Part shown: piece after piece, positions 1 through 424 of the stretch
Numbering within the stretch: the stretch's first letter is position 1
How the letters are laid out: each line of letters opens with the position of its first letter
Assembly: GCF_003334355.1 (NCBI RefSeq)
Contig: NZ_QOWP01000040.1
Strand: one strand, 5' to 3'
Length of the DNA: 30,137 nt
Source: Escherichia coli
Lineage (GTDB): Bacteria; Pseudomonadota; Gammaproteobacteria; Enterobacterales; Enterobacteriaceae
Program-made: the position numbers and the translations under genes
Notes under the pieces: generated by a model
What the model saw: the letters and a program-made list of their open reading frames with translations, nothing else
What the model was told of the DNA's origin: nothing
Database searches by the model: none

Positions 1-110
1 TTTTTCGTCTTGCGACGTTAAGAATCCGTATCTTCGAGTGCCCACACAGATTGTCTGATAAATTGTTAAAGAGCAGTTGCGACGCGGCTTTCAGCTCACT
101 GTCGCGAGGT
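1..110 (-). promoter_or_regulatory. rrnE: rRNA operon leader region (5' leader of 16S transcript) with boxA antiterminator motif; the 16S gene itself lies just beyond the window start
   Basis: Reverse complement of 1-110 reads ...GCTGAAAGCCGCGTCGCAACTGCTCTTTAACAATTTATCAGACAATCTGTGTGGGCACTCGAAGATACGGATTCTTAACGTCGCAAGACGAAAAA, which I recognise as the conserved rrn leader (boxA TGCTCTTTAACAA at 63-75 on minus strand). Assignment to rrnE rests on the adjacent purH, from remembered K-12 gene order. Confidence 0.8.
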
Positions 111-147
111 GGCGTATATTACGCTTTCCTCTTTCAGAGTCAACCCT
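111..147 (-). promoter_or_regulatory. rrnE: rrn P2 promoter (-35 TTGACT at 138-143, -10 TAATAT at 116-121, 16-bp spacer)
   Basis: Hexamers read directly on minus strand with near-consensus sequence and spacing; position relative to the leader matches rrn operon architecture. Confidence 0.75.
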
Positions 148-221
148 GAATTTCAGGATTTTTCTCTTCAACCGAACCGGCTGTTTGTGTGAAGTGATTC
201 ACATCCGCCGTGTCGATGGAG

Positions 222-290
222 GCGCATTATAGGGAGTTCTCCGCAGGCCGCAATAGAAAAATTGCAGAAAAATAACTGACTGCTGCATTC
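222..290 (-). promoter_or_regulatory. rrnE: rrn P1 promoter (-10 TATAAT at 226-231, -35 TTGCGG at 248-253) with A/T-rich UP element at about 254-285; Fis sites expected further upstream (about 290-400) but not individually called
   Basis: Minus strand reads ...TTTTTCTGCAATTTTTCTATTGCGGCCTGCGGAGAACTCCCTATAATGCGC, the familiar rrn P1 core (CTCCCTATAATGCGCC) preceded by an A/T tract. Confidence 0.75.
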
Positions 291-424
291 CCCAGCAAAA
301 CCCCGCTTTATACCTTTTTACGCACAGAGTTATCCACAATCATCAATGTAATTTCTGTATTTTTCCCACGGTAACCACTGTCAAAATTGTGATCACCATT
401 GAAAGAGAAAAATTCGCGAGCGTT

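Follow-up and report, generated by a model that had tools for sequence, protein, structure and literature searches.

The window, a 30,137-nt stretch of Escherichia coli DNA, begins with a region that lies outside the genes to its right, and the question it raises is what the first 300 nucleotides control and, if they belong to an rRNA operon, which of the seven it is. We conclude, with a probability of about 0.97, that positions 1-300, read on the minus strand, are the region that controls transcription of the rrnE rRNA operon of E. coli. The window is E. coli chromosome, and the presence of the rrnE promoters and leader is confirmed and ordinary. A sequence-only reading had proposed the leader and tandem P2/P1 promoters of an rrn operon on the minus strand, and this was borne out: P1 lies at the higher coordinates, followed by P2 and then by the leader. 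The elements are, in the direction of transcription:

296..282, minus strand: candidate proximal Fis site GCTGGGGAATGCAGC, centred at about -72, placed by its alignment position against rrnB P1 site I
277..257, minus strand: A+T-rich UP element region of P1 (-40 to -60), AGTTATTTTTCTGCAATTTTT, with 17 of 21 bases A or T
253..248, minus strand: rrnE P1 -35 hexamer TTGCGG, matching the consensus at 3 of 6 positions
231..226, minus strand: rrnE P1 -10 hexamer TATAAT, after a 16-bp spacer, invariant in the seven K-12 rrn operons
225..218, minus strand: G+C-rich discriminator GCGCCTCC, separating the P1 -10 from the inferred start, its GCGCC invariant in the seven operons
1..217, minus strand: the part of the rrnE leader from P1 that lies in the window, 217 nt, with another 69 nt off-window
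143..138, minus strand: rrnE P2 -35 hexamer TTGACT, invariant in the seven K-12 operons
121..116, minus strand: rrnE P2 -10 hexamer TAATAT, after a 16-bp spacer
105..79, minus strand: boxB-like hairpin just past P2, a predicted stem
75..63, minus strand: boxA, TGCTCTTTAACAA, an exact match, invariant in the seven operons
60..19, minus strand: 5' strand of the 16S leader-trailer helix (RNase III processing stem), -129 to -88 relative to 16S
50..41, minus strand: boxC, TCTGTGTGGG, an exact match to the boxC sequence in PMC10250234

The P1 core 16-mer CTCCCTATAATGCGCC occurs once in the 30-kb window (221-236, minus strand), where 0.01 occurrences would be expected by chance allowing up to 2 mismatches, and in an alignment with the window all seven K-12 rrn operons carry it unchanged. 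A generic sigma-70 scan detected P2 and missed P1, because the P1 -35 has only three of six consensus matches; P1 was therefore identified by homology, from the invariance of this 16-mer. The P1 promoters of rrn operons are known to have a weak -35 and to rely on activation from upstream. The hexamer found here, TTGCGG, is specific to rrnE, with TTGTCA present in most other K-12 operons. Alignment with rrnB P1, where transcription starts 9 nt past the -10, points to A217 as the P1 start. The putative UP element, AGTTATTTTTCTGCAATTTTT, aligns with the rrnB P1 UP element AGAAAATTATTTTAAATTTCC and probably has the same function. A crude Fis consensus scan returned one strict match, at 380-394, and did not pick up the candidate site at 296..282. 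The generic sigma-70 scan also gave five "terminator-like" matches in positions 1-700, which we rejected as short hairpins inside the promoters and leaders. Two ORFs that span the promoters, 77-232 on the plus strand and 199-339 on the minus strand, were likewise rejected as genes; neither has a RefSeq annotation.

This arrangement corresponds to what has been described for rrn operons, which carry tandem P1 and P2 promoters about 120 bp apart, P1 serving high-level synthesis during fast growth and P2 basal synthesis (PMC4696680). Contributors to their regulation include the UP element, the G+C-rich discriminator, Fis, H-NS, Lrp, DksA, ppGpp, and the initiating NTPs, with the discriminator having a role in control by ppGpp/DksA and by initiating NTPs (PMC4696680). 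In the reporter study of the same work, rrnE ranked first among the seven promoters both in strength and in dependence on Fis, retaining <35% of its activity in a fis mutant and being unaffected by H-NS, and gel shifts with the sequence upstream of rrnE P1 gave 5 to more than 8 Fis sites (PMC4696680). In the window, the P1 and P2 -10 hexamers are 110 bp apart, in keeping with a tandem pair, and P2 transcription is expected to start at about 110-107, about 108 nt downstream of the P1 start. The A+T-rich UP element and upstream Fis sites (~257-400) would offset a weak P1 core, and sigma-70 P1 and P2 would drive the operon in tandem: P1, according to the literature, would provide most rRNA in fast growth and be shut down by ppGpp/DksA and by low initiating-NTP levels, while P2 would give basal expression.

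Which of the seven operons these promoters serve can be read from an alignment of the window with 500-bp segments taken from in front of the seven K-12 16S genes. All seven share, without variation, the P1 -10 with its discriminator, the P2 -35, and the sequence from boxA through the window edge, and upstream of the P1 -10 (the -35, the UP element, and beyond) the window matches K-12 rrnE only. Over positions 1-680 there are 7 differences from K-12 rrnE, comprising substitutions at 379, 364, 301, 274, and 96 and 1-nt indels at 92 and 87. The substitution at 274 falls in the distal UP element, while 96, 92, and 87 fall in the boxB-like hairpin loop, where the window is identical to K-12 rrnH and rrnD. 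A boxB loop of the rrnH/rrnD type suggests either that rrn leaders have undergone gene conversion or that the change is specific to K-12.

The window shares the locus and the order and spacing of all elements with rrnE of K-12 MG1655. It resembles rrnB in its UP element, 16-bp spacer, TATAAT, GCGCC, a start 9 nt past the -10, and the P2 hexamer TTGACT, and the sequence from boxA to 16S is identical. The two differ in the P1 -35 (TTGTCA in rrnB, TTGCGG in rrnE), in the UP element and Fis region, in the P2 -10 (TATTAT in rrnB, TAATAT in rrnE), and in the P1-P2 spacer, which is shorter in rrnE than in rrnB and of the rrnH/rrnD/rrnE type.

The leader downstream of P2 contains the signals described for rRNA antitermination. 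Published work describes the order boxB-boxA-boxC and the leader-trailer helix, as well as the rRNA antitermination complex, in which boxA is the loading site of NusB/NusE (S10) (PMC10250234). In the window, the predicted hairpin lies after P2 and before boxA, which is the published order, and the block of boxA, 12 nt, and boxC occurs once in the 30-kb window, with 0.00 occurrences expected by chance. The same kinds of RNA signal load Nus factors onto RNA polymerase at the phage lambda nut site (boxA-boxB-boxC), but in rrn the order is boxB-boxA-boxC, there is no N protein, S4 and SuhB take part, and boxC is also part of the rRNA processing helix (PMC10250234). On this model, boxA would recruit NusB/NusE, which together with NusA, NusG, S4, and SuhB would turn RNA polymerase into an antitermination complex; the boxC region (60-19) would later pair with sequence just past the 16S gene, and the resulting leader-trailer helix would be cut by RNase III and be needed for 30S assembly.

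This pairing was examined with the trailer of E. coli ATCC 8739, a genome identical at this locus, and the predicted duplex between window 60..19 and nucleotides 5-46 past the 16S 3' end reaches -56.0 kcal/mol, compared with -28.4 +/- 4.2 for 500 shuffled trailers (best -42.6). The leader folded alone is no more stable than its shuffles (z = -0.68), because its main pairing partner, the trailer, is off-window; this other half of the helix lies about 1.6 kb away. The leader itself is incomplete in the window, lacking the last 69 nt before 16S, and the distance from the P1 start to 16S nucleotide 1 is about 286 nt. An RNase III RNA-seq study reports a site at K-12 position 4207874 in the purH-rrsE spacer (PMC5371410), which corresponds to window position ~206 on the minus strand, 11 nt past the inferred P1 start, as compared with ~46 for the canonical helix. 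This RNase III-dependent signal may be a coverage edge where sequence unique to rrnE begins.

The promoter-leader region has no Rfam family in a scan at gathering thresholds. In a permissive scan, the full 254-position model of RF02849 (Ysr197) aligns with window 286..53 on the minus strand (119.8 bits, E = 5e-30), below the family gathering threshold of 167 bits, so that the region is homologous to Ysr197 and is not a member by the Rfam cut-off. Ysr197 was found by RNA-seq in Yersinia, where it shows stationary-phase repression (PMC4376681), and across genomes it is annotated more often than any other sRNA (PMC9029176). Its consensus holds the P1 -10 and discriminator, the P2 -35 and -10, and boxA; since it contains both promoters, the model spans promoter DNA that is not transcribed. 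Repression in stationary phase is the usual behaviour of rrn promoters. The Ysr197 "sRNA" family thus appears to be the rrn promoter-leader as seen by RNA-seq, an identity that would explain both the abundance of its annotation and its stationary-phase repression; Rfam files it as an sRNA gene, whereas its counterpart in the window is a promoter plus leader. The converse reading, that the stretch from P1 through P2 to boxA is a stand-alone small RNA of the Ysr197 type with a regulatory function of its own, draws on the whole-model match and on the RNA-seq detection in Yersinia (PMC4376681), but the subthreshold score, the promoter DNA in the family consensus, and a repression pattern like that of rrn promoters make it very unlikely.

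With the rrnE promoter-leader as the preferred reading, what lies beyond the left edge can be taken from complete genomes. Many complete E. coli genomes match positions 1-547 with 100% identity, and at least 80% of this segment is present in 5411 of 5426 genomes, with a median of 7 matching places per genome because there are seven rrn copies. Strain PSS-12 is 100.0% identical over window 1-12000. ATCC 8739 is identical over 1-547, and the first 7 kb contain 71 differences from it, none of them before position 2208. In both genomes the 16S rRNA annotation begins 70 nt past the first position of the window, well inside the approximately 200 bp within which the sequence-only reading had looked for it, and in the source genome the 16S 5' sequence AAATTGAAGAGTTTGATCATGGCTCAG is expected at this same point. 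The gene order past the edge in ATCC 8739 and PSS-12 is 16S, tRNA-Glu, 23S, 5S, yjaB, and metA, which agrees with the predicted 16S-tRNA-23S-5S series to the left. As the rRNA genes are off-window, their presence rests on these locus-identical genomes; a tRNA search of the window itself found none. In the K-12 MG1655 annotation the same 16S gene is rrsE (b4007), adjoining purH (b4006), and the operon is therefore rrnE. Features specific to rrnE are all found at the locus, namely divergent purHD, yjaB-metA after the 5S gene, and the rrnE-specific -35 and UP sequence.

The spacer tRNA requires comment. The rrnE spacer carries tRNA-Glu at 8744-8819 in locus L001 and at 4394-4469 in locus L129, whereas rrnE is listed among the operons with a tRNA-Ile plus tRNA-Ala spacer in a study that used W3110 and that notes an rrnD-rrnE inversion (PMC4696680). 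The W3110 inversion likely explains the discrepancy. That source also lends itself to a reading in which an rrnE promoter region is followed off-window by a recombinant operon body, as in a W3110-type rrnD-rrnE inversion, giving 16S-tRNA-Ile-tRNA-Ala-23S-5S(-tRNA-Thr). The boxB loop of the rrnH/rrnD type, as a sign of sequence exchange between operons, points in the same direction, but PSS-12, identical over 12 kb, and ATCC 8739 both carry tRNA-Glu and continue into yjaB-metA after the operon, so we regard a recombinant body as highly improbable, slightly more so than a stand-alone small RNA. That the sequence is an orphan promoter-leader remnant whose operon was deleted in the source strain, as might be imagined from the off-window position of the rRNA genes and from the 15 of 5426 genomes with no place covering 80% of the query, is the least credible reading and can practically be dismissed, given a complete operon behind identical sequence in every reference checked and a leader intact to the window edge.

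On the opposite strand, the PurR-repressed purHD promoter fires away from the rrnE promoters, and the following elements of the purHD operon are referred to below:

425..440, plus strand: PurR operator of purHD, GCGCAAACGTTTTCGT, 16 bp, assigned by motif identity
441..446, plus strand: probable purHD -10 hexamer TACAAT, read from the sequence and directly abutting the PurR operator
453..547, plus strand: purH 5' leader, with hairpins, a conserved tail, and a possible SD hairpin
466-479, plus strand: hairpin 1 of the purH leader, from the covariation set and the fold
480-513, plus strand: hairpin 2 (long) of the purH leader, from the covariation set and the fold
514-529, plus strand: conserved tail of the purH leader, a nearly invariant CUCUC...GGGGA/SD tail
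530-544, plus strand: possible SD-containing hairpin of the purH leader, nearly invariant
548..2137, plus strand: purH CDS, 529 aa, from the ORF list and the annotation of locus-identical genomes
2149-3438, plus strand: purD, downstream of purH

The reverse complement of GCGCAAACGTTTTCGT is the purH-purD motif ACGAAAACGTTTGCGC from a ChIP-chip study (PMC3159470). The operator abuts TACAAT at 441-446, and the purHD start is therefore probably near 453. This places the inferred purHD and P1 (217) starts about 236 bp apart, within the approximately 300 bp that had been proposed for the two divergent promoters, and the P1 and purHD -35 regions are about 165 bp apart.

The head-to-head arrangement is widespread. 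A 20-mer covering the PurR operator and the -10 occurs exactly in at least 120 species of Enterobacterales. Among the matches listed, the exact P1 core TATAATGCGCC is found on the opposite strand at a distance of 140-236 bp in 105 of 120 loci; where there was enough DNA, the P1 core was present in 94 of 100 and boxC in 40 of 42, again among the matches listed. The rrn side extends to no more than 700 bp in 108 of the 120 loci listed, which is consistent with draft assemblies breaking at the repeat. All eight loci with enough rrn-side sequence (from Enterobacter, Citrobacter, Klebsiella, Photorhabdus, and Xenorhabdus) contain a 16S gene detected by Rfam, its 5' end directed towards the purH operator and 426-511 bp away. 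One of the listed occurrences of the 20-mer, in a Phycisphaerae MAG (L042), is accompanied by neither purH nor rrn and looks like a chance match. The conservation of these sequences indicates that the head-to-head rrn-purHD arrangement is old and stable, having been kept in most of the ~100 Enterobacterales species sampled.

The pairing, which extends from Escherichia to Photorhabdus and Xenorhabdus, may be a functional unit rather than frozen synteny. Intense P1 transcription or a shared Fis array might, for example, tune purHD via local supercoiling, with the purH leader structure acting as a second, post-transcriptional layer; we consider this proposal speculative and unlikely.

The purH leader does contain a conserved structure. 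Its predicted fold is more stable than that of shuffled sequences (z = -4.67), and in 52 distinct Enterobacteriaceae leaders 94.1% of cells are paired under a model of two hairpins together with the SD hairpin, compared with at most 57% in slid controls. Pairs changed on both sides number 11 in these 52 leaders, where shuffles give 4.2 +/- 1.3. Hardly any variation is seen at the base of hairpin 2 (GTTAGCTGA...TCAGCTAAC) or in the tail (GCTCTCTGTAAT...AAATCCAGGGGATTT), whereas the apex differs in length between leaders; the SD hairpin lacks covariation support because it is itself nearly invariant. Photorhabdus, Xenorhabdus, and Budvicia have a different purH leader. Rfam scans at gathering and permissive thresholds returned no family for this leader, and a limited literature search found no description of it. 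The structure may serve in translational control or as a processing site.

Other interpretations of parts of this leader were rejected. A match to mir-725 at 470-528 in the permissive Rfam scan is a chance hairpin match. The hairpin at 466-479 followed by a T-run on the minus strand was considered as a terminator shielding rrnE P1 and discarded because conservation of the T-run breaks down in Klebsiella and Enterobacter, among others. Hairpin 2 is unlikely to be a DNA operator because the distance separating its conserved arms differs from species to species by more than 20 bp.

Few bacterial control elements have been studied as thoroughly as the rrn P1/P2 promoters, the leader-trailer helix, and the antitermination signals that depend on Nus factors, and for this reason the rrnE promoter-leader finding itself adds no new biology. 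The left window boundary falls inside the rrnE leader, a sequence repeated seven times per genome, and read mapping there is therefore ambiguous. By-products of some practical use are the reidentification of Ysr197 and the conserved structure of the purHD mRNA leader, which may merit separate study.

Two further RNA family matches were observed elsewhere in the window. A TPP riboswitch (RF00059, 74.8 bits) lies at 11774-11874 on the plus strand, upstream of a 631-aa ORF (11955-13850) that we take, from the E. coli map position, to be thiC, where such a riboswitch is expected. A match to the Rfam family "P26" (71.1 bits) lies at 26143-26204 on the minus strand, between ORFs 26209-26574 and 21861-25922, presumably rplL and rpoB from their size and position. 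The "P26" match would then fall in the rplL-rpoB intergenic region, so that here too an Rfam "sRNA" corresponds to a spacer within an operon.
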